Assembly: GCA_016292035.1 (NCBI GenBank)
Contig: JAEEZR010000010.1
Location: 29,535-93,534 of the forward strand
Origin: Bacillales bacterium
Lineage (GTDB): Bacteria > Bacillota_I > Bacilli_A > RF39 > UBA660
DNA: 64,000 nt
Direction of reading: 5' to 3'
Shown: in pieces, positions 4,390 through 55,748 of the stretch
Layout: each line of letters begins with the position of its first letter
Position numbering within the stretch: the first letter of the stretch is position 1
Made by a program: the position numbers and the translations under genes
Notes under the pieces: model-generated
What the model was told of the DNA's origin: nothing
Databases searched by the model: none
What the model saw: only the letters and a program-made list of their open reading frames with translations

Positions 4390-5003
4390 TATTTATAGCT
4401 ATCTATAGCTTTTATTACTAATTCTAATTCTTTGTTATCTACATTATTTATAATTTTAGAGTATTTGTGTTTTATATAATCATTTTTCTCTTTTAGTAGT
4501 TCTTTATTTTGATGATTATATCCAATTAATATTTCATTATTTGTTAGTTTTTGTTTACCTTTAGAAAATATAATTAGATTATAATATTTTCCCTTTTCTT
4601 TTATTATTTCTTCTAAATCTATTTTATAGCCTATAGAGTTCATTTCTTTTCTTAATATATCGTGATTATTATTTGAAATAGTAATTATTCTTTTTAATGG
4701 TACTTTATTATCTTTTATTATATTTAAAATAGTAAATGTTCCCATTCCTGATAATACTAAAGTGTAATCAGTTTCATTTTCTTTTAGGGTTACTCCATCT
4801 CCTACCCTGAAATCTATGAAATGTTTTAATTCTATATTTGTACTTTTTATTGCACTTTCTATAATATTATCTTTAATGTCAGATGCAATTGAATATATTC
4901 CTCTTTTAGCTAGTTTTTTACTTAAAAAGGCTTGATCGCATCCAACATCTATTACTTTTTCATTATCACTTATATATGAAGATATTACTTCTATTCTAGT
5001 CAA
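4386..5003 (-). CDS. trmK: tRNA (adenine22-N1)-methyltransferase TrmK-like
   Basis: Pattern [11 protein letters not shown] ... GDG ... LSGMGT ... resembles B. subtilis TrmK/YqfN. It lies just downstream of sigA, as in Bacillus. Confidence 0.7.
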
Positions 5004-6231
5004 TTAAGAAATCCTTTAACTTTTTAGCACGAGATGGATGACGTAGTTTTCTTAGAGCTTTTGCTTCTATTTGTCTGATTCTTTCTCTTGTTACTCCAAA
5101 TTTCTTTCCTACTTCTTCTAGAGTATGGCATGTTCCGTCATATAGTCCAAAACGAAGTTCTAGTACTTCTTCTTCTCTCTTTGTAAGAGTTTCTAATACG
5201 CCTTTTAATTCTTCTTTTAGCATTTCATATGTAGTATATTCTTCTGGTGACATTGTTCTTTCATCAGCTAAGAAATCTCCTAGATGTGAGTCATCTTCTT
5301 CACCAATTGGAGTTTCTAGTGATACTGGGTCTTGGCTTATCTTTTTTATTTCAATTATCTTGTCTAGTGATAATCCCATTTTTTTAGCTATTTCTTCTTC
5401 AGATGGTTCTCTATTTAAGTCTAGTGCTAGTTGTCTTTCAATTCTAGCCATTTTGTTAATTGTTTCAACCATATGAACAGGAACACGAATTGTTCTTGCT
5501 TGGTCTGCTAGAGCTCTTGTAATAGCTTGTCTAATCCACCAAGTTGCATATGTAGAAAACTTATAACCTTTTTCAAAGTCGAATTTTTCTACGGCTTTCA
5601 TTAAACCTATATTACCTTCTTGTATTAAGTCTAGGAATAAAAGTCCTCTTCCTACATATCTTTTAGCAATTGATACAACTAGACGAAGGTTACTTTCCGC
5701 TAATGTTTTTTTAGCTTCTTCATCACCTGCTGCTATTCTATGAGATATTTCTTGTTCTTCTTCTAATGATAAAAGGCTTATTCTACCTATTTCTTTAAGA
5801 TACATACGAACATTATCATTTACCGACATGTCTTTACTTTCACTAGCTAAGTCATCCATGTTAAGTTCTATATCTTCGTTTAATAAATCTCCATCAGAAT
5901 CGTCTTCATCTTCACTTCTAACTTCAATGCCATTTTCAGTTATTCTATTATATAAAGTATCATAGTCATTTGCGTCTAATTCTAAATTATTAGTGGCTTT
6001 AGCTATTTCTTCATATGTTAAGAAACCTTTCTTTAATCCAGATTCTATTAATTCATCTAGAATTTCTTCAAATGTCTTCATTTGTTTAACTTCTTTTATT
6101 TCTTTTTTAGCTTCTTTTAAAGTTAATTCTTCATCATTTTTAGTTTGATTACTTTTCTTAGTATCTTTTATTTCCTTAACTGCTGTTTTACTTTTCTTTT
6201 CCTCTTTTACTTCTTCTACTTTCTTTACCAT
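4996..6231 (-). CDS. sigA: Primary RNA polymerase sigma factor
   Basis: Regions 1.2-4.2 are present, including [13 protein letters not shown] and the region 4.2 [30 protein letters not shown]. The dnaG-sigA operon arrangement is conserved. Confidence 0.95.
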
Positions 6232-27174: not shown

Positions 27175-28257
27175 TTATTCTTCAGATGGGTTTGTATTAC
27201 CAATAATTGATAAGTTTTTACCTTTAGGCATTATTTGTACCCAAGTGTTTCCATCATTTAGTTTTATTTCTTCGTTTGTATCTTTATATTTATATACTGT
27301 TTTTCCTGCTCTTGATGTTTTTTCCCAAGTTATAGGATAAGCATAACCATTAGTTATATAATATCCTTCTCCACTAGTTATATTTGTAAGAGCTTGCCTT
27401 CCATATCTATCATATGAGTGGTTTTCTACTTCATATACTATTATATTTTTAGTAGTATATTGTTTTCCTGTATCAATGTCTGTATGAGCTTCTGTTTCAC
27501 CATAACCATTTGCCATACTTCTTTTATATACTTTGTTTTCAGGATCATAATCATATTTTGTTGTTTGATAATTAGAATATTCAATATCTATATGATCTGC
27601 TTTTTTAGATAGTTCTTTTTCATTTAGATTAATTTCATCTATTGAGTATTTAAATAATTTACCTTTGTCAGATGTTGTTCTAAATCCACTAGCGTTTACT
27701 CCTTTTTTAATTAAAGATCCTTTAGTGAATCCAGTGTGTTCATATGCTCTGTTAAGTCCTGATTCTCTATAAAAATAAGTCCCCTCATAATATATTCCAT
27801 CTAAGTGATCCATTTTTAAAGAGTCCATATCATTATAAGCTTCTGTGCTTCCTCCCCAGTGAATATATATTGCATCATTTTCTAGTGCATAATCTAAAAA
27901 GTATATTCTTGAGCTTCTTACTGATCCTATTTTTTCTGGCATTTTATCAAGAGAGCTATATAAAGCCATTATTCTTGTTATTCCACCTTCTACTATTATT
28001 TCATAGTTTAAATATGAATCTTGAAGCCCTGCATGAGGCCATGCATTATGATTGTTATTTATCATAACAGCTACTGATCTATCAGTGCTGTCTTCATCAA
28101 ATATTTTTAATTTTTTTACTACTACAGGTTCTTTTTCTTTTTCTGGAGTACTTTCTTTTGGCTTTTTGTCTATAAATGTTTTATAGCCTATAAAAGCTCC
28201 TGCTGCAATTATTATTAAAGCTAATATTCCTAAAATTATTTTTAGTGGTTTTTTCAT
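27175..28257 (-). CDS. DUF3048 domain protein (YerB-like)
   Basis: VAVMINNNHNAWPHAGLQDS...EGGITRIMALY...GSVRSSRIYF matches my memory of the DUF3048 signature. Confidence 0.75.
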   Translation of the reverse strand: MKKPLKIILGILALIIIAAGAFIGYKTFIDKKPKESTPEKEKEPVVVKKLKIFDEDSTDRSVAVMINNNHNAWPHAGLQDSYLNYEIIVEGGITRIMALYSSLDKMPEKIGSVRSSRIYFLDYALENDAIYIHWGGSTEAYNDMDSLKMDHLDGIYYEGTYFYRESGLNRAYEHTGFTKGSLIKKGVNASGFRTTSDKGKLFKYSIDEINLNEKELSKKADHIDIEYSNYQTTKYDYDPENKVYKRSMANGYGETEAHTDIDTGKQYTTKNIIVYEVENHSYDRYGRQALTNITSGEGYYITNGYAYPITWEKTSRAGKTVYKYKDTNEEIKLNDGNTWVQIMPKGKNLSIIGNTNPSEE

Positions 28258-28332: not shown

Positions 28333-28845
28333 TTACTGTATACTCTTATCTAGTGTGTTTCTACTTGTAATTTCTTTAAGAATTTCATCAAATACAATTC
28401 TATACATTTTATCTTTAGCTTCTAATTCATCTGTTTCTTTTTTATATTTTCTTATTATAGAACTATAATATGCTTCATCTTTAAAGTTTTCACTTTTATA
28501 TGATTCCTTAGCTTTGTTAGATATCCATTTTATTATAGATTTATTTTCTACCATTGTTTTTTCTGCAACTGTTTGTTCTTTTCCAACTAAACTTTCTAGT
28601 TTAATTAAACCCTCTGTAGATAAATGCCCCAATAAAACATAGTATTCTTCTCTTAGTGTTTTTAAATATAAGTCTAATTTATCTTTTTGATTATTTAGAT
28701 CTTCTATGCTTAGTTTTTTCTTTTCAAGTGCTTCTTTGTTATTAATACTTATAGACATTTGAATTTCATCTTCTATCTTTTTTTCTAAGCATGAGCATCT
28801 ATATTCAACATCCAACATATTTTTTATTAATACTATGTTTTCCAT
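28333..28845 (-). CDS. Hypothetical coiled-coil protein (170 aa)
   Basis: The ATG at 28845 has an AAAGGAG RBS and lies 1 nt after the upstream stop. The track's start at 28914 would overlap by 68 nt. Confidence 0.55.
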   Translation of the reverse strand: MENIVLIKNMLDVEYRCSCLEKKIEDEIQMSISINNKEALEKKKLSIEDLNNQKDKLDLYLKTLREEYYVLLGHLSTEGLIKLESLVGKEQTVAEKTMVENKSIIKWISNKAKESYKSENFKDEAYYSSIIRKYKKETDELEAKDKMYRIVFDEILKEITSRNTLDKSIQ

Positions 28846-28846
28846 A

Positions 28847-29347
28847 TTACCTACTCCTTTTTGTTCTTTCTTGAGTCGATTCAATAGTAAATTTAATTTC
28901 TTTTTTTCTTTCAATGCAGCTTTCTTTATATCTTTTCATAGCTGCTAATCTTTCATTAATATATTCTTTAGCTACTAATGATTTTCTTCCATTATTGTTT
29001 ATTGATACTTTTACATATTTTAATGATTTGATGCTCTCATCAACTTCACCTATTAAAGCTGTTACTTCTGATAATAATTCTTTTAGTTCTTCAGTTGACG
29101 CCATCATTATACGATTATTATATCTTCTTTCTGCAGTATCAAGTTCTTTTACTGCTAGGTTAAATTCTTCTCTGACAGAGTCAATTAATACTTCTAAATC
29201 AGTTATATACTTTTTAGATTCTTCGCCCATATTTTCTCTTAGTTTAACATATTCACACATTAAATCGTGATGCATTTGAAACAATCTTTTATATTCTGCT
29301 CTTGCCATGGCATAATCACGTACTACGCGCAAGTTACTTAATATCAT
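28847..29347 (-). CDS. Hypothetical coiled-coil protein (166 aa)
   Basis: Intact ORF forming a two-gene unit with 28333-28845. No motif recognised. Confidence 0.55.
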   Translation of the reverse strand: MILSNLRVVRDYAMARAEYKRLFQMHHDLMCEYVKLRENMGEESKKYITDLEVLIDSVREEFNLAVKELDTAERRYNNRIMMASTEELKELLSEVTALIGEVDESIKSLKYVKVSINNNGRKSLVAKEYINERLAAMKRYKESCIERKKEIKFTIESTQERTKRSR

Positions 29348-29403: not shown

Positions 29404-29428
29404 AATAAAAAAGCACTCATTAGTGCTT
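29404..29428 (-). terminator. Intrinsic terminator after ssrA
   Basis: Stem aagcact/agtgctt with a 4-nt loop, followed by TTTTATT on the minus strand, 12 nt after the tmRNA CCA end. Confidence 0.7.
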
Positions 29429-29439
29429 ACTCTTCTTTT

Positions 29440-29794
29440 TGGTGGAGCTGACGAGGAATGACCTCGTGTCCAAAATACCAGCTGCGCAGGTCTTTAATTA
29501 CAAGTTTAGCTAGTTTCAGATTTCAAAAAGTTATATGGATTGCTAGCCTTCCCTAACTTTTCTAAGACTATAAATATTCTTTATTTAGTATAGACACCTA
29601 AATAATATAGTTCACTTTTATGAACCCAGCCTTTCTCTCGTGAACAAAGAGAAAAGTGAGCCACCCTAGACCTTAATTAGGCAAAAACAGGTGAGAAATT
29701 ATAATCGTTTCCGGTTATTTAAATTGTTGGATTTATAGTATCCCTACTACTTGAACCCACGTGCACGACTATCCTGTCGAATCAAAACAGCCCC
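29440..29794 (-). ncRNA. ssrA: tmRNA (transfer-messenger RNA)
   Basis: On the minus strand the 5' end is GGGGCTGTTTTGATTCGACAGGATAGTCG. The 3' end is GGACACGAGGTCATTCCTCGTCAGCTCCACCA (T-arm plus acceptor plus CCA). An internal tag ORF follows TTAAATAACC, analogous to the B. subtilis resume context. Confidence 0.9.
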
Positions 29795-29804
29795 ATGCAT
29801 GATA

Positions 29805-29834
29805 ATTATATCATACTGAGGCTGTTATAGTCAA
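29805..29834 (-). promoter_or_regulatory. Promoter of ssrA
   Basis: On the minus strand, TTGACT, an 18-nt spacer, then TGATATAAT (extended -10). It lies about 10 nt upstream of the mature 5' GGGG. Confidence 0.6.
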
Positions 29835-29858
29835 TTAATAACTGTACTTAGTTTGATA

Positions 29859-30797
29859 CTAGTTATATACAGTTTCTATTGGCCCACATGCTGCAATTCC
29901 ATCATTATATAAGTCACAATGGTCACTATTAGAAAACTGAAGTACCCTAGTTTTGGCTGAATAATTATATACCCAGAATCCTCCGTATATGTTTTCAGAA
30001 TCACCTATACGAAGTGATACGTAACTTGTGTCATAACTTGTTAGAGATTCATCTACTGTTATTCCTAAAGATGATTCAACATTTTGTATTAATTTGTTTA
30101 ATGTTGCGCTACCAGTTCTATCGGAAGATACCCATCCATTTGGTTTTTGACAAGCTAATTTTCCATTATAGTATACACACGCTTCATGCTCTACTGTTTC
30201 TTTATTAGTTCTTATAAGTACTAATCCATTTGTTAAAGATAAGTCACTAAGTCTTGTTTTTGCTGTTGATGGGTAAGATCCTTGTGCATATTCTGTGTTG
30301 TTTCCACCTTCAGTTTTTGTCCAGTATACATATGGACTATTTCCGCCATTTGTATTAGACTGTCCTAAGCAAGAGCATTCACCATTATCACATGAAAGTG
30401 TTCCATTTTTTACAAATTCTTCTTCATTTATGTTTGAAGAATATGATTCATTAACATAGCAGTAGTTTGAGTCTTCTACGGCTATAAAATCAACTTTTCC
30501 ATTTGGCCCAAAATCTACTATGTATTTAGCGTCTGTATCTGTTGTATCTAGTTTTGTTTCACTATTACATATATTTTCAATATTGTAGCAGTAATAATTT
30601 CTAGTATTATTTGATAATGAATCAGATTGTTTTTGACTTTCTGCTATTCTAACTATACTTTCAACTTTTACTTTGAATGCATCTTTTCTTCCTTTTTCAA
30701 ACATATTTAAAACGTTTGGCATTATAAGCAACATTAATATTGCTAGTATTGCTATTACTGCTAAAAGCTCTACTAATGTAAATCCTTTTTTATTCAT
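29859..30797 (-). CDS. Type IV pilin-like protein P3 (312 aa)
   Basis: MNKKG/FTLVELLAVIAILAILMLL. The ATG at 30797 avoids overlap with P4. It shares the head and the YVYW/GHEAC C-terminal module. Confidence 0.85.
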   Translation of the reverse strand: MNKKGFTLVELLAVIAILAILMLLIMPNVLNMFEKGRKDAFKVKVESIVRIAESQKQSDSLSNNTRNYYCYNIENICNSETKLDTTDTDAKYIVDFGPNGKVDFIAVEDSNYCYVNESYSSNINEEEFVKNGTLSCDNGECSCLGQSNTNGGNSPYVYWTKTEGGNNTEYAQGSYPSTAKTRLSDLSLTNGLVLIRTNKETVEHEACVYYNGKLACQKPNGWVSSDRTGSATLNKLIQNVESSLGITVDESLTSYDTSYVSLRIGDSENIYGGFWVYNYSAKTRVLQFSNSDHCDLYNDGIAACGPIETVYN

Positions 30798-30810
30798 ATA
30801 ATCATTCCTT

Positions 30811-31830
30811 TTAGTCTTCCAAATTATCATATACGTTTCCTGTGTTTATATAGGTATTACCATTAATAGTTACTATTTCACCTTTATCTATATAGTAATA
30901 CTTGCCTAAATTATATATGTATGTGACACCATTTACAACATTATTAAACACTAAATTGCCGTCCATTCTTTTTAAAAAATCCAAAGTTCCATTTGTCCTG
31001 TCAAAACAAAAAGGTCCACCAACAACAGAATTATCGACTAAAGATTGGGATTGTAAGCACATATATGGGTTAAAACCAGCGCTTATAAGTATTGGTTTTA
31101 ATTCCTCACCCGTTTCAATATTATCAAATGCATTTTTCTTAAAACATGTTGTTTTAGTAGTACTCTTAGCACATATTTCATGTCCTAGAACGTAGCCGTT
31201 ATTTAGTGTTGTTCTAAAGAACAAATTTCCTAGTGTTTCATAACTGGTTAATGCATTTGATGGATATGTTCTATCTGTAAATAATTCACCTTCTACTGTG
31301 TAATTAATGCATTTACCATTTTCATATGTGCATCTTCTTCTACCGTAAGTAATTGTATGATTCCAGTATACATATGTATTATTAGCTGGATCTAGATTTT
31401 CACATACACATACTCCATTTATGCATGTAAGAGGCTTTCCTTCTACTAAATCCTCTTCATTTATATTTGCATTATAATTATCGCTCACATAGCAATAGTT
31501 ACCATCTTCTATAGCTATTGATTTAACGTTATTTTTTCTATTAAATGTTACTTGGTATTTTGCCCCGTTTTCTGATACTGATAGTTGTTTACTATCTTCA
31601 CACTCATCTAATCCTTCACAGTATAAATTAATATTTTTTCCTTCTAATGTATCTGTTTGAATTTGTTTTTGTGCTGATTCTACAATATTGCCTACTTGTA
31701 CTTTGAAGGCATTTTTCTTTCCTTTAGAGAACATGCCAAGTACATTTGGCATTATAAGTAACATTAGTATTGCTAGTATTGCTATTACTGCTAGAAGTTC
31801 TACTAATGTGAATCCTTTTTTATTTTTCAT
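30811..31830 (-). CDS. Type IV pilin-like protein P4 (339 aa)
   Basis: MKNKKG/FTLVELLAVIAILAILMLL. It shares the head and the YVYW...GHEIC module, and has a distinct Asn/Gly/Tyr-rich C-terminal end. Confidence 0.85.
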   Translation of the reverse strand: MKNKKGFTLVELLAVIAILAILMLLIMPNVLGMFSKGKKNAFKVQVGNIVESAQKQIQTDTLEGKNINLYCEGLDECEDSKQLSVSENGAKYQVTFNRKNNVKSIAIEDGNYCYVSDNYNANINEEDLVEGKPLTCINGVCVCENLDPANNTYVYWNHTITYGRRRCTYENGKCINYTVEGELFTDRTYPSNALTSYETLGNLFFRTTLNNGYVLGHEICAKSTTKTTCFKKNAFDNIETGEELKPILISAGFNPYMCLQSQSLVDNSVVGGPFCFDRTNGTLDFLKRMDGNLVFNNVVNGVTYIYNLGKYYYIDKGEIVTINGNTYINTGNVYDNLED

Positions 31831-31867
31831 GTTTACCTACTTTCTAGAAATATAATAACATAGCTAT

Positions 31868-31899
31868 AAAAATAACTGCAATTGATTTGCAGTTATTTT
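31868..31899 (-). terminator. Intrinsic terminator after asnS
   Basis: 12-bp stem aaaataactgca/tgcagttatttt followed by a T-run on the minus strand. Confidence 0.7.
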
Positions 31900-31913
31900 A
31901 CTTTAGTTTACAA

Positions 31914-33302
31914 TTAATATTCACAGCTTCCTGGTGTTCTTGGATAAGGAATAACATCTCTTATGTTTTCAACTCCTGTTAAATACATAATTAGTCTTTC
32001 AAATCCCATTCCAAATCCAGAGTGATAACATCCTCCGAATCTTCTTAGATTCATATACCAGTCTACTGTTTCCATAGCAACATTACATTCTTTAGCACGT
32101 GCAACTAGTTTTTCATAGTTATCTTCTCTTTGAGAACCACCAATTAATTCACCTGCTCCTGGTACTTCTAGATCTACTGCTGCTACTGTCTTATGATCAT
32201 CGTTTTCTTTCATATACCATGCTTTTATTTCTTTAGGCCAGTTAGTTATGAATACTGGACTGTTAAAGTGCTCTGTTATATATTTTTCATGTTCTTTAGC
32301 GATGTCATCATCATAGTCAGGAGTAAACTCGAAATCTACACCACTTTCCTTTAAGAGGGTAATAGCATCGTGGTGAGTTATTCTTACGAAGTTAGATGCA
32401 AGTAATTTTGTTAGCTTATCTTTTAATGTGTTATCTACGAATTGGTTTAGAAAATCTATTTCTTCAGGACATTTGTCTAGTACATATTTTACTATGAACT
32501 TTAGCATTTCTTCTTCTATGTCCATTACCTTATCTAGATCACAGAAAGCTATTTCTGGTTCAATCATCCAAAATTCGTTTGCATGTGTTTTAGTGTTTGA
32601 GTTTTCTGTTCTAAATGTTGGTCCGAATGTATAAATTTTCTTAAATGCTAGGGCAAATGTTTCACCTTGAAGTTGTCCACTTCCTGTTATATATGTTGCT
32701 TTGTTAAATAAGTCTTCTTTCCAATCAATTTTGCCATCTACTTTTTTGATGTTATTTAAATCAAGTGTTGTTACTTTAAACATTTGATCAGGGTCTTCAC
32801 AAGCAGCTGTTGTTAAAAGAGGAGTATGTACATATACATAGTTGTTCTTTTGGAAGTATTCGTGAATAGCCATTGCAGCTACACTTCTTACTTTAAATAC
32901 TGCTTGGAATAGGTTTGTTCTAGGACGAATATAAGCTTGTTCTCTTAAAAATTCTCTTGTTGGTCTTCCTTTAGCTTGAAGAGGATAATCTTCATCACAG
33001 TCTCCTTCTAGTTTAATATTTTCTACTTTAAGTTCGTATTCTTGACCTGATCCTTCTGACTTAATTAAAGTACCTTCTACTGTTATAGCAGCGCCTATTG
33101 GATACTTAGATATTTCTTCAAAGCTACTTAATTCATTTGTATATACTAGTTGCAAATGTTTAAAACATGTTCCATCAGAAAAATCTATGAATCCAAATTC
33201 TTTTTGTTTTCTATGGTTTTTAATCCATCCTGATATTGTTACTTGTGTTCCAAGTAATTCTTCATATTTTTCATGTAATTCTTTTAAATCCATTTTTATC
33301 AT
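31914..33302 (-). CDS. asnS: Asparagine--tRNA ligase
   Basis: Class IIb synthetase with an N-terminal OB fold, FRTENSNTKTHANEFWMIEPE (motif 2 region) and a C-terminal GFGMGFERL motif 3. The upstream T-box has an Asn specifier. Confidence 0.92.
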   Translation of the reverse strand: MIKMDLKELHEKYEELLGTQVTISGWIKNHRKQKEFGFIDFSDGTCFKHLQLVYTNELSSFEEISKYPIGAAITVEGTLIKSEGSGQEYELKVENIKLEGDCDEDYPLQAKGRPTREFLREQAYIRPRTNLFQAVFKVRSVAAMAIHEYFQKNNYVYVHTPLLTTAACEDPDQMFKVTTLDLNNIKKVDGKIDWKEDLFNKATYITGSGQLQGETFALAFKKIYTFGPTFRTENSNTKTHANEFWMIEPEIAFCDLDKVMDIEEEMLKFIVKYVLDKCPEEIDFLNQFVDNTLKDKLTKLLASNFVRITHHDAITLLKESGVDFEFTPDYDDDIAKEHEKYITEHFNSPVFITNWPKEIKAWYMKENDDHKTVAAVDLEVPGAGELIGGSQREDNYEKLVARAKECNVAMETVDWYMNLRRFGGCYHSGFGMGFERLIMYLTGVENIRDVIPYPRTPGSCEY

Positions 33303-33315
33303 CCTTTCTAAATAT

Positions 33316-33540
33316 AAAAAAACAGTGTCCTCCCTCTTAGGGACGAAACACTGCTTAGATTCCGCGGTACCACCCAGTTTATCTATAAATAGATCACTTT
33401 AGGATTTAACGCATTCCTTACGTATATATTTACTTAATTTCAATATATCACTCAGAAGTGTTATTCAGTTTAAGCATATTATCAATTTTCCACCAATCAT
33501 TGACTCTCTATAAATCGTTTTTAAACTTACTTCTCTTCTT
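33316..33540 (-). promoter_or_regulatory. T-box leader riboswitch controlling asnS
   Basis: On the minus strand there is an AGAGAG stem I base and a candidate specifier AAC-A (33460-33462, in GAATAACAC). The conserved T-box GGGTGGTACCGCG is at 33363-33375. A terminator (cagtgt...acactg) plus T7 follows at 33316-33353. Confidence 0.8.
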
Positions 33541-33587
33541 CATTGATTTATTAAAGTATAGCATATTTTATTTCAAAAGAAAAGCGT

Positions 33588-53088: not shown

Positions 53089-53114
53089 TTAAAAAGAAGC
53101 ACAATGCGCTTCTT
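53089..53114 (-). terminator. Intrinsic terminator after the prepilin peptidase gene
   Basis: Stem aagaagc(g)c/g(a)gcttctt with a short loop, followed by TTTTT on the minus strand. Confidence 0.55.
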
Positions 53115-53860
53115 TAAAATACATAACCCATACTGGATAATATATATATTATTATGCATGATAATAATAGGAACGGTCCGAATGGAATTAGATTTTCATT
53201 ATATTTTTCATCGAGTAAGAAGTAAGCTATTAAAGCTAGAACGCTAGCTACAAATAATGAAAGAAGTCCATTAAATGTTCCAAGAGCAAGTCCTATAGGA
53301 AGCATTAATTTTACATCTCCTCCTCCAAGGCTTTCTCTTTTAAATACTTTATCTCCTACTATTTTTACTAATAACATAATTACAAATAATACTACCATTC
53401 CAACTATTTTTAATTTGTAGTCATTAAATGAACTAAATGATATATATGTTATTAGTATTAATAGAGTTGATCCAAATACTACTCTATCTGATACGTAATA
53501 ATATTTAAAGTCACTTACTGCAGTTACTGAACATGCACTTATTAATATTAGTGGCACTATTATATCCGCAGTTAATCCATAATACAAATAACTACACATA
53601 AATGTTATACCAGTAAATAATTCTACTATTAAGCTACTTATATCTATATGCGCTTTACAATATGAGCATTTACCTTTTAGGCATATATAAGATATTACTG
53701 GAATGTTCATATACCATTTAAGTGGTTTTAAGCAGTTATCGCATCTACTTCCTGGTTTTATTATACTTATATTATTTGGTATTCTATATCCTATGCAAGC
53801 ATAGAAACTTCCAAGAAGTAAACCAAGCACTAAAAATGCTCCCCCATAAAATACTGTCAT
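53114..53860 (-). CDS. Prepilin peptidase (A24 family, PilD/ComC type)
   Basis: N-terminal Cys pairs CDNC...CSYC, polytopic membrane protein, catalytic Asp contexts AVSDFKYY and GGGDVKLM. Confidence 0.88.
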   Translation of the reverse strand: MTVFYGGAFLVLGLLLGSFYACIGYRIPNNISIIKPGSRCDNCLKPLKWYMNIPVISYICLKGKCSYCKAHIDISSLIVELFTGITFMCSYLYYGLTADIIVPLILISACSVTAVSDFKYYYVSDRVVFGSTLLILITYISFSSFNDYKLKIVGMVVLFVIMLLVKIVGDKVFKRESLGGGDVKLMLPIGLALGTFNGLLSLFVASVLALIAYFLLDEKYNENLIPFGPFLLLSCIIIYILSSMGYVF

Positions 53861-53870
53861 TATATTCCTC

Positions 53871-55748
53871 CTATTTAAGTATTTCTGAACTTACGTTGTA
53901 CATTGGAACTAATACTGATATCATTATACCACCTACTACTACTGCTAGGAATACTAGTAGTATAGGTTCTACCATTGTTTTTAGAGTATTTGCTAAAGAA
54001 CGTTGTTCTCTTTGATAGTACTCACTTATTTTTTCAAGCATGCTAGCAAGTTGTCCAGTTTGTTCACCTGTTGATATCATATAATATGCAAGTTCTGGTA
54101 TAGCCCAGCTTTCCTTAAATGATAATGACATTTTTTCACCTCTTAATAGGTTTGAAATTGTATCATACATTATCATTTTATAGAATTCATTATTAGTTAT
54201 TTTACTTAAGATATCAATTGTATCTGTAAGTAATACATTGTTTTTATTAAGTACTGCGAATGTTTTCGCAAATAAGTTCATTTCATTATAGATAACTATG
54301 TTACCTACTACTGGTATATGCATGTATGCATATTGAACTACTGTTCTAAATGCTTTTACTTTCTTATATAGTATTGAGAATACCAATATAATAGCTAATA
54401 TAGCTACAAATAATATACCAACATTATTTCTTAAGAAGTCTGATAGTTTTAATAAGAATAATGTTATACCTGTCATTTCTGCATTCATTGAATCATATAC
54501 TTTTTTGAATTGAGGTACTATGTATACAACCATGAATGTTATAACAGTTACTGCAAATATAAGTACTATAGATGGATAAGTTAATGCACTTATCATTTGT
54601 TTTCTTGTAACTTCTTTTTCTTGATAATAATTTGACATATCATCTAGAGTTCCTTCTAGATCACCTATTAATTCAGCTGCTTTTATCATGTTAATTAAAA
54701 GAGCTGGGAACACTTTGTTTTGTTTTTCTAATGCAGATGAGAAGTTTTCACCTACAGATAATTCATATATTAATGAAGAATATACCTTTTTATATTTTCT
54801 TCTATTATCTTGTTTAGCTAATATTTTAATAGCGTCTATTAATGGAATACCAGCTTTCAAATATGTGGATAATTGTGTTAACCAGAATACTAAGTCTTTA
54901 TTCTTCATTTGTTCATTCATGTGTGATTTCTCACCATGTATGAAATTTATCCACCAGTTAGTAGTTATTTCATATACTTCATATCCTTCATCAATTAAGA
55001 ATGAGTGTACATCTAGTCTAGATAAAGATGGGAAGTATCCTGTTATTAATTTGCCTTCTTTATTTCTTGCTAAATATCTATATACTTGTTTCTTTTCAGT
55101 TCTTTCAGCATCTTTACCAAATTTATCAATAAATAATACTTCAAGTTCTCTTTCTTTTTTATTTTTATAGTATTTAACTAATGATATATTATTCCATTTG
55201 TTTACAAAGTAATTAGATATAGACTTAGGTGCATTTTTAGTTGCATATGTTGTCTTTTCTCTAATCATTTTAATTCTTTTAGCAGATTTATCTACAAATC
55301 CACTAAGTGAACTATATATAAATATAGGGAAAGAATAGAATATTACTTTTAATACTTTAAATGAACCTCTTCCGATTGCCTTTAGTAGTAAATATAGCTC
55401 AGTTACTATTGGTTTAAGAGAATATTTGTATACAGCTTTGCCTACTATTCCTACATATTTAGCAATAAACTTAGATGCATACATTATTGCTACAAAAATA
55501 TAACTAAATACAGTAAAAATATTAGTGACTAAAAAGTCAAATGCTTTAAATAAACCTACTGATGTGTATGATAGTGTTTTTATTATTTCGCCAAATAATC
55601 CTACTACTATTTTTTTTATTAATAAAAATATACTTTTAAAAAAGTCTACAAAGAATTTAACTATAGGATTCATATTCCTATTAGTAGAGACGGAACTATT
55701 CTTTTTTTTCTTGGTTTGCTTTGGTTTTGCTTTTTTATATGTTTTCAC
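53871..55748 (-). CDS. Type IV filament platform protein (GspF/PilC/ComGB family) with a 220-aa N-terminal extension
   Basis: GTG start with GGAGG 8 nt upstream. The canonical N-domain begins at YRYLARNKEGKLITG (aa ~223). There are two T2SSF repeats (LSTYLKAGIPLIDAIKILAKQ and FAVLNKNNVLLTDTIDILSKI) and 3 core TM helices. Confidence 0.88.
   Translation of the reverse strand: MKTYKKAKPKQTKKKKNSSVSTNRNMNPIVKFFVDFFKSIFLLIKKIVVGLFGEIIKTLSYTSVGLFKAFDFLVTNIFTVFSYIFVAIMYASKFIAKYVGIVGKAVYKYSLKPIVTELYLLLKAIGRGSFKVLKVIFYSFPIFIYSSLSGFVDKSAKRIKMIREKTTYATKNAPKSISNYFVNKWNNISLVKYYKNKKERELEVLFIDKFGKDAERTEKKQVYRYLARNKEGKLITGYFPSLSRLDVHSFLIDEGYEVYEITTNWWINFIHGEKSHMNEQMKNKDLVFWLTQLSTYLKAGIPLIDAIKILAKQDNRRKYKKVYSSLIYELSVGENFSSALEKQNKVFPALLINMIKAAELIGDLEGTLDDMSNYYQEKEVTRKQMISALTYPSIVLIFAVTVITFMVVYIVPQFKKVYDSMNAEMTGITLFLLKLSDFLRNNVGILFVAILAIILVFSILYKKVKAFRTVVQYAYMHIPVVGNIVIYNEMNLFAKTFAVLNKNNVLLTDTIDILSKITNNEFYKMIMYDTISNLLRGEKMSLSFKESWAIPELAYYMISTGEQTGQLASMLEKISEYYQREQRSLANTLKTMVEPILLVFLAVVVGGIMISVLVPMYNVSSEILK

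Follow-up and report, generated by a model that had tools for sequence, protein, structure and literature searches.

We analyzed a 64,000-nt stretch of the genome of a Bacillales bacterium (contig JAEEZR010000010.1; the window), in which two adjacent genes, P4 and P3, lie between asnS and ssrA; P1 to P5 are the pilin genes of the window as numbered in an initial annotation of this DNA. We found that P3 and P4 are bimodular pilins, as Raynaud et al. (2021; PMC8179133) use the term, and carry a previously undescribed C-terminal module (C-module). The site 3' of asnS is a standing pilin slot with a different content in each of four close genomes, and the genome (~1.1-1.4 Mb) holds at least 16 pilin genes bearing the C-module, of which P2, P3, and P4 are the window's share. 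P4 and P3 are most likely interchangeable adhesive subunits of one type IV pilus, a reading to which we assign a probability of roughly 0.65; the term adhesive is chosen by analogy and from the end position of the module on surface proteins. Four rival explanations are less well supported.

P3 and P4 are bimodular type IV pilins

Both proteins begin with a canonical class III signal peptide, MNKKG/FTLVELL in P3 and MKNKKG/FTLVELLAVIAILAILMLLIMP (the MKNKKG/FTLVELL type) in P4, followed by the hydrophobic alpha1 head FTLVELLAVIAILAILMLLIMPN, which is invariant and has Glu at +5. The pilin heads of the initial annotation are real: the N_methyl family PF07963 scored 34.8 and 31.2 bits in P4 and P3, respectively (E 1e-8 and 1.5e-7; cut-off 21.2), and TIGR02532 scored 29.7 and 29.8 bits (cut-off 16.3). 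The equivalog models for Com, Gsp, and PilA proteins covered the head only and stayed far under their NCBIfam cut-offs, the best being ComGC with 34-38 bits (cut-off 75) and ComGE with 29-33 bits (cut-off 49). We rejected an assignment to the competence (Com) pseudopilus, given these sub-cut-off scores and the position of the genes between asnS and ssrA, not in a comG operon.

We modeled the proteins with AlphaFold2 (AF2), using for P3 a family alignment of 30 sequences. The P3 model (mean pLDDT 86.9) has a 54-residue alpha1 helix (8-61), a four-stranded sheet with a Cys-braced hairpin to about residue 145, and a second alpha/beta domain at 156-306. The P4 model (pLDDT 74) has its alpha1 helix at 9-62 and is good to about residue 255, with residues 257-339 unpredicted. 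In both models alpha1 is followed by four strands, pLDDT exceeds 88 over residues 11-140, and Foldseek matched no solved pilin headgroup. P3 is thus divided into leader, alpha1, pilin module, and a C-terminal YVYW/HEAC module (~150-312), with 10 Cys; the parts of P4 are leader, alpha1, pilin module (~1-145), a divergent YVYW/GHEIC module (~150-255), and the Asn/Gly/Tyr-rich tail already quoted in the initial annotation (255-339), with 12 Cys. The C-terminal half of P4 had no relative among 5.8 billion proteins.

The C-module comprises ~145 amino acids, is rich in cysteines, and has the motif YVYW...IRT...GHEAC. As first noted, its elements (YVYW, (I/F)RT, GHE(A/I)C, and K..C) are present in P2-P4, and by profile it was not detected in P1 and P5. 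The C-module is rare: a profile search of 1.84 billion representative proteins identified only 198 representatives carrying it, at the C-terminus in every carrier. A pilin head precedes it in about 1/7 of the carriers listed; the other N-termini are TasA/SipW-type "ATYAYF" sequences (one above the Peptidase_M73 cut-off), a transmembrane (TM) anchor followed by an ALDDLY motif, lipoprotein signals, or fn3, Flg_new, DUF285, or DUF5411 domains. The module of P3 and P4 is accordingly, as in modular pilins, an independent domain that also occurs outside pilins, and its range of carriers marks it as a separate evolutionary unit, apparently a mobile domain in its own right. It had no Pfam family and no sequence relative in the PDB, where profile matches were confined to the alpha1 head; Foldseek searches of PDB and BFVD were likewise negative. 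We do not propose a PilJ-like dual-pilin fold, as Pfam searches with 15 module sequences gave chance-level hits only (PilJ_C, E 0.08 in one).

The profile had 19 matches in the source genome (G000), 16 of them pilin-headed. Elsewhere in this genome the C-module forms the end of a 278-aa protein that has a zinc ribbon at its N-terminus and a single TM helix (C20:39107-39940, minus strand) and lies inside a 1393-aa open reading frame (ORF; C45:29413-29790, plus strand). It also occurs in a 212-aa protein whose head is degenerate (MKKGFISM, no Glu+5) and which is encoded in a minor-pilin-like operon (C35:16073-18744, plus strand), which continues with genes for 166-aa and 508-aa pilin-like proteins.

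TM-anchored and lipoprotein-type proteins bear the same C-module, so a filament is not required for its use. The prepilin head of P3 and P4 could serve solely for export and membrane anchoring, with the C-module acting at the cell surface or on short pseudopili; archaeal class III signal-peptide binding proteins and the pseudopilins of type II secretion systems are models for such an arrangement, and the low ComGC, GspG, and PilA scores would agree with it. We nevertheless consider it quite unlikely, because Glu+5 and the full alpha1N are strictly kept in 16 of 16 copies, beyond the needs of an anchor and unlike in the TM-anchored carriers, and because the genome has a complete PilB/PilC/PilD set.

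A dispersed pilin family and its assembly genes

G000 is a 1.10-Mb metagenome-assembled genome in 56 contigs with a GC content of ~28%; the related loci belong to a lineage of gut and rumen Bacilli with genomes of 0.8-1.3 Mb. A pattern scan of G000 yielded 26 prepilin-like ORFs, half of which (13, with 281-339 aa) align with P3 and P4 over nearly the full length. The heads of the family are almost invariant, and the globular parts share 27-45% identity. The alignment shows conservation of YC...C, NYCY, L.C....C.C, YVYW, (I/V)RT, GHEAC..YNNK..C, YWDTD..T..KLK..ME..LG....C, and a Cys-rich end. A three-gene subfamily, as proposed from the window, is therefore far too small. The complete divergence reported beyond the module motifs holds for P4 at ~255-339, its unique part, and not for P3, whose alignment with the family continues over the helix TLNKLIQNVESSLG and a terminal C...G.A.C. 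The two-domain pilin family makes up ~1.3% of the G000 DNA, and all pilin-like genes together ~2.7%.

Most family members are single units among housekeeping genes, each with its own -10-like box, ribosome-binding site (RBS), and terminator. Start codon, leader, and RBS were present in all 17 upstream regions inspected, and a -10-like box in most. Three pairs are tightly coupled, P4-P3 with a spacing of 13 nt and the others with 8 and 22 nt. The dispersal that had seemed unusual for pilus genes is the rule in this lineage. The initial description of P3 and P4 as tightly coupled type IV pilin-type genes apart from the pilus machinery stands, and the suggested refutation, a rearranged piece of a conventional contiguous operon, found no support, since the relatives examined have no such operon for these genes.

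The genome encodes cognate PilB-, PilC-, and PilD-type proteins, the machinery expected for type IV pilins, and these assembly genes are likewise scattered. The PilD- and PilC-like genes are in the window at 53.1-55.7 kb (Table 1), the gene for a PilB-like ATPase (PF00437, 421 bits) lies on contig C52 beside polC and with a 119-aa pilin gene, and the minor-pilin-like operon is on C35. Two Tad-like loci (C30:25375-30319 and C22:60848-64481) encode a CpaF/TadA-type ATPase, TadB/C-like and ParA/CpaE-like proteins, and small pilins. Among related loci, L077 and L078 have family pilin genes directly beside sporulation-type sigma factor genes; genes for a SpoIIGA-like protease and a sigE-like sigma factor are found in L068 (4453-5929; genome G001) and L077 (993-2462), from genomes of ~1 Mb.

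The initial annotation regarded P2-P4 as plain filament subunits and P1 and P5 as the decorated ones. This distinction did not hold, as P2-P4 themselves carry a second domain. The best candidate for the major pilin is instead a 152-aa paralogue (C35:66706-67164, minus strand), which has the family head and pilin module without a C-module and whose gene immediately precedes a dnaE-like gene.

P3, P4, and their paralogues might alternatively be major pilins themselves, each forming homopolymeric filaments and switched by differential expression for antigenic or functional variation. Such a role would explain why no copy lacks a complete head, an RBS, or a promoter-like site, and the almost invariant heads are what polymerizing subunits require; the strain-variable slot described below also recalls the five major pilin alleles at the Pseudomonas aeruginosa pilB-tRNA-Thr locus (Harvey et al., bioRxiv 10.1101/150227). 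However, with 280-340 aa and a second domain these proteins are about twice the size of a typical major pilin, the modular pilins described so far are minor subunits (PMC8179133), and the module-less 152-aa paralogue has the same head. Nor did we find an obvious phase-variation element (homopolymer tract or invertible repeat) near P4. Diversification by a diversity-generating retroelement was rejected, as PF00078 (reverse transcriptase) had no match in the 76%-complete G000. On balance, alternative major pilins are unlikely.

The pilin slot between asnS and ssrA

We compared the slot in four close genomes, namely the window's own and those represented by the loci L160, L076, and L169. The site holds P4 and P3 in this genome. 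L160 (asnS 99% identical at the amino acid level, flanks 90-94% at the nucleotide level) has a single 292-aa pilin, whose best match among the paralogues here is 54%. L076 (asnS 95%, flanks 86-92%) has a 182-aa acidic ORF and a 307-aa pilin 51% identical to P3, and L169 (asnS 89%) has another, different pilin (partial). Around the slot the flanks of L076 and L160 thus retain 86-94% nucleotide identity; the homology is interrupted from the asnS stop codon on in L076 and from within the pilin head in L160, and picks up exactly at the P3 stop in both (blastn). We withdrew the notion that the 5' third of the L160 pilin gene is orthologous to P4, based on a 2.2-kb blastn match, because the identity in a sliding window decays from 87% to 60%, as it does for any paralogue. 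The -10 and RBS block after asnS is kept in all relatives compared (5/5 aligned intergenic regions) and recurs upstream of a pilin gene in another context on L159; the hairpin after asnS is also kept in L160 and, upstream of the pilin gene, in L159.

P4 and P3 had been described as an insertion between asnS and ssrA, with the question of whether the interval is empty in relatives. In 18 family-level relatives, both same-genus representatives included, asnS and ssrA are not adjacent, and in the closest genomes the site after asnS is occupied by other pilins, so a one-off insertion does not describe the locus. At 86-88% asnS identity, asnS lies in other neighborhoods, again with pilin genes nearby. 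Neither the ssrA promoter nor the asnS 3' end, used as exact patterns, had a match among JGI metagenome contigs. Between rpmA and asnS, L160 (700-1541) and L169 (134-967) have a Fic-domain gene and an ORF of 57-59 aa, both absent in the window and in L076.

The DNA 3' of the ssrA terminator is strain-specific as well. The window has two coiled-coil ORFs of 166 and 193 aa without a family (28333-29347, minus strand), in L076 (8571-11266) there are two different coiled-coil ORFs, a further pilin of 313 aa, and an ORF of 134 aa, and L160 has a NUDIX gene (4673-5185); Pfam and PHROGs offered no convincing match for the ORFs downstream of ssrA. Synteny returns at a DUF3048 gene (window 27175-28257). 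Since ssrA is a classic integration site of islands and the DNA on either side of it differs among close relatives, P4-P3 could be the cargo carried by a genomic island or mobile element with the tmRNA gene as its target, in which case the pair would have no link to the pilus biology of the host. The failure to find the C-module in 60 relatives searched, two of them of the same genus, would fit horizontal acquisition of the module. Against this, the pilin genes are located on the 5' side of ssrA instead of at its 3' end, and the asnS-ssrA interval contains no integrase or recombinase ORF and, besides P4 and P3, no coding-strand (minus) ORF of at least 60 aa. Moreover, the GC content at P4/P3 (0.30) equals that of the surroundings, 14 further family members sit elsewhere among housekeeping genes, and the promoter block after asnS is conserved. 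We therefore rejected an ssrA-targeting island as the source of the pair, and regard cargo of this kind as very improbable.

The family tree has a star-like shape. P4 and P2 form long orphan branches, P3 and P4 do not group as sisters, and the pair is no product of recent duplication. P3 has a single close relative, P0002 (70% identical), encoded on the ENA metagenome contig L159. The first ~400 nt of P0002 are 92-98% identical to the paralogue C20_7233 and the remainder is 72-85% identical to P3; in partition trees P0002 pairs with C20_7233 (SH-aLRT 99) and with P3 (SH-aLRT 100), and dS is 0.31 for the first part versus 0.81 for the second. P0002 is thus a recombinant with the pilin module of the C20_7233 lineage and the C-module of the P3 lineage. 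L159 carries an array of three family pilin genes (1-1309), the first of which ends 13 nt before P0002, the same spacing as in P4-P3; the asnS-P4 spacer, hairpin included, has a homologous counterpart after P0002.

The ratio of nonsynonymous to synonymous substitutions (dN/dS) is 0.10-0.19 for the pilin genes versus 0.04 for asnS, which indicates that they are working genes under relaxed but real constraint. At identical residues, codons are identical in 60% of cases in the heads (47% expected) and in 54% in the bodies (53% expected), and the longest exact nucleotide matches among heads are 26-49 nt. The likeness of the heads is upheld mainly at the protein level. To speak of "near-identical nucleotide blocks" in the heads would be an overstatement in view of the modest codon excess (0.60 versus 0.47) and the length of these matches.

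Numerous paralogues whose 5' ends are conserved and whose 3' ends vary, exact stretches shared among the heads, and a recombinant relative would also be expected of silent cassettes that supply one expressed locus by gene conversion, as Neisseria pilS does; the copies could equally be decaying pseudogenes. Yet start codon, leader, RBS, and promoter-like site occur in all copies and a terminator in most, there are no internal stops, the dN/dS values are those of constrained genes, and 40% of the identical head residues are encoded by different codons. Silent or decaying cassettes are, in our judgment, hardly credible.

On the minus strand, the order of the locus is rplU-ysxB-rpmA, T-box, asnS, an 83-nt spacer, P4, a 13-nt spacer, P3, a 64-nt spacer, ssrA, and terminator (Table 1). 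The ORF coordinates agree with the sizes and the spacing of P3 and P4 first reported, and also with an 83-nt gap after the asnS stop (31831-31913). A longer P3 ORF starting at 30830 is unlikely to have the real start.

Table 1. Features of the asnS-ssrA locus and related genes in the window
Feature	Coordinates	Strand	Evidence or remark
T-box leader upstream of asnS	33336..33552	-	Rfam RF00230, 136.7 bits
asnS, asparagine--tRNA ligase, 459 aa; conserved left flank of slot	31914..33293	-	ORF; Pfam PF01336 and PF00152; source annotation of relatives, asparagine--tRNA ligase
Hairpin AAAATAACTGCA...TGCAGTTATTTT 3' of asnS, likely intrinsic terminator	31869..31899	-	
Candidate P4-P3 promoter, TTGCAG, 18 nt, TATTAT with TG (TGtTATTAT)	31852..31881	-	inferred, read from sequence
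RBS of P4, GTAGGT	31840..31835	-	3' of candidate promoter
P4, bimodular type IV prepilin, 339 aa	30811..31830	-	ORF
P4-P3 spacer (13 nt) with RBS AAGGAA, couples P3 to P4	30798..30810	-	
P3, bimodular type IV prepilin, 312 aa from MNKKGF	29859..30797	-	ORF
ssrA promoter (strong), TTGACT, 18 nt, TATAAT (11/12, with TG)	29805..29834	-	
ssrA (tmRNA gene), conserved right flank of slot	29440..29794	-	Rfam RF00023, 104 bits, full-length
Terminator 3' of ssrA	29411..29428	-	homology with L160 stops just past it
P2, third module-bearing member in window, 312 aa	12581..13519	-	profile and alignment
Prepilin peptidase, PilD-like, presumed processing enzyme	53114..53860	-	PF01478, 58 bits (G000 C17:82762-83085)
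PilC-like platform protein, two T2SSF domains	53871..55748	-	PF00482, 98 and 83 bits

A simple promoter scan made no call at the candidate P4-P3 promoter. No promoter-like element had been seen between the two pilin genes; there is in fact a 10/12 consensus match inside the 3' end of P4 (30938..30910), but matches of this kind are not commoner than in shuffled sequence. Co-transcription of P4 and P3, as first proposed, therefore stays the likelier reading. We found no terminator between the P3 stop and the ssrA promoter (29795-29858, minus strand), nor at the corresponding place in L160 and L076, and transcription of the pilin genes probably continues into the tmRNA precursor, as far as the ssrA terminator. 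ARAGORN reported no tmRNA in the window; we retained the Rfam call, and pipelines relying on ARAGORN alone would overlook this tmRNA.

Interpretation and comparison with known systems

If P4 and P3 are interchangeable subunits of one type IV pilus, the prepilin peptidase would cleave their leaders after Gly, and the near-identical alpha1 heads would admit all paralogues into the same pilus, which would probably be built mainly of the 152-aa paralogue. The C-modules would then be displayed on the filament as ligand-binding (adhesive) caps. The diversity among paralogues and strains may reflect selection for different ligands or escape from recognition by phages or the host, and alleles may be exchanged by homologous recombination via the conserved head and flanks.

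Several points weigh against this interpretation. Because the C-module lacks a Pfam, PDB-sequence, or Foldseek relative, its adhesive role is argued from analogy and from its C-terminal place on surface proteins. That sixteen bulky subunits share one machine is an assumption, and the two Tad-like loci are also in the genome, itself a 76%-complete assembly from a metagenome with 3% contamination. Evidence for recombination consists of one clear mosaic and the slot polymorphism; frequent gene conversion is unsupported, as codon identity in the heads is only modestly above expectation. Expression, leader processing, and filament assembly of P3 and P4 are predicted from sequence.

The guts of herbivores and humans commonly harbor uncultured Bacilli with small genomes, whose means of attachment to particles, hosts, and partner cells are little understood. 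The share of the genome devoted to pilins points to pilus-displayed binding modules as a main interface with the surroundings. Being compact, well predicted, and disulfide-rich, the C-module is a good target for structure determination and for glycan and protein binding screens. To our knowledge, most documented cases of pilin diversification come from Neisseria and Pseudomonas so far; the strain-variable slot offers a ready marker with which strains can be typed in metagenomes, and it is a natural experiment on how pilins diversify in monoderms. A bolder proposal, which we hold only tentatively and with the odds against it, is that in this lineage one Cys-rich cap domain serves as a universal, swappable tip for scaffolds unrelated to one another, namely type IV pilins, TasA/camelysin-type fibers, and membrane anchors. 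The ~16 pilin copies and the slot would then form a population-level combinatorial adhesin repertoire, diversified by recombination at the junction of pilin module and cap under frequency-dependent selection, with the cap representing a new ligand-binding fold.

Type IV pili can display binding modules by way of modular pilins; in Streptococcus sanguinis, PilB combines a pilin with a vWA module and PilC a pilin with a lectin module, and an InterPro survey found more than 1,200 modular pilins (Raynaud et al., 2021; PMC8179133). P3 and P4 resemble these proteins in the small pilin module, a class III signal peptide, a grafted C-terminal module that also occurs outside pilins, and the monoderm, low-GC Bacillota host, and their presumed role is the same, the display of a binding module on a pilus. 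They differ in several respects (PMC8179133). The grafted module here is undescribed, Cys-rich, and without a Pfam, PDB, or fold match. It is present in at least 16 copies per ~1.1-1.4-Mb genome instead of one or two, in genes scattered singly among housekeeping genes and outside a pil locus. Modules are reshuffled among paralogues, and the content of the locus varies between close relatives.

Neisseria pilE/pilS is similar in having many pilin-related sequences with conserved 5' and variable 3' parts and recombination among the copies. Neisseria pilS copies are promoterless and lack the 5' head, whereas every copy here is complete, has its own signals, and is under purifying selection, with no dedicated conversion machinery evident. 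The variable surface families of Mollicutes (Mycoplasma vlp/vsp/vsa) are lipoproteins switched by homopolymer tracts or site-specific inversion. They are likewise paralogous families of surface proteins to which a reduced-genome relative of Bacilli gives a sizeable share of its genome, with a conserved N-terminal export/anchor part and variable exposed parts; the anchor here is instead a type IV pilin head, and we found no switch element.

The closest parallel to the slot is the pilA locus of P. aeruginosa, where pilA allele groups I-V occupy a conserved pilB-tRNA-Thr site (Harvey et al., bioRxiv 10.1101/150227). Both are fixed sites by a stable-RNA gene with conserved flanks and varying alleles, with or without an extra gene, and for both, pressure from phages and the host is proposed as the driver. 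P. aeruginosa has one major pilin per genome, encoded beside the assembly ATPase. In contrast, the asnS-ssrA slot described here is remote from the machinery, and its one or two pilin genes belong to a large paralogous family of two-domain pilins.

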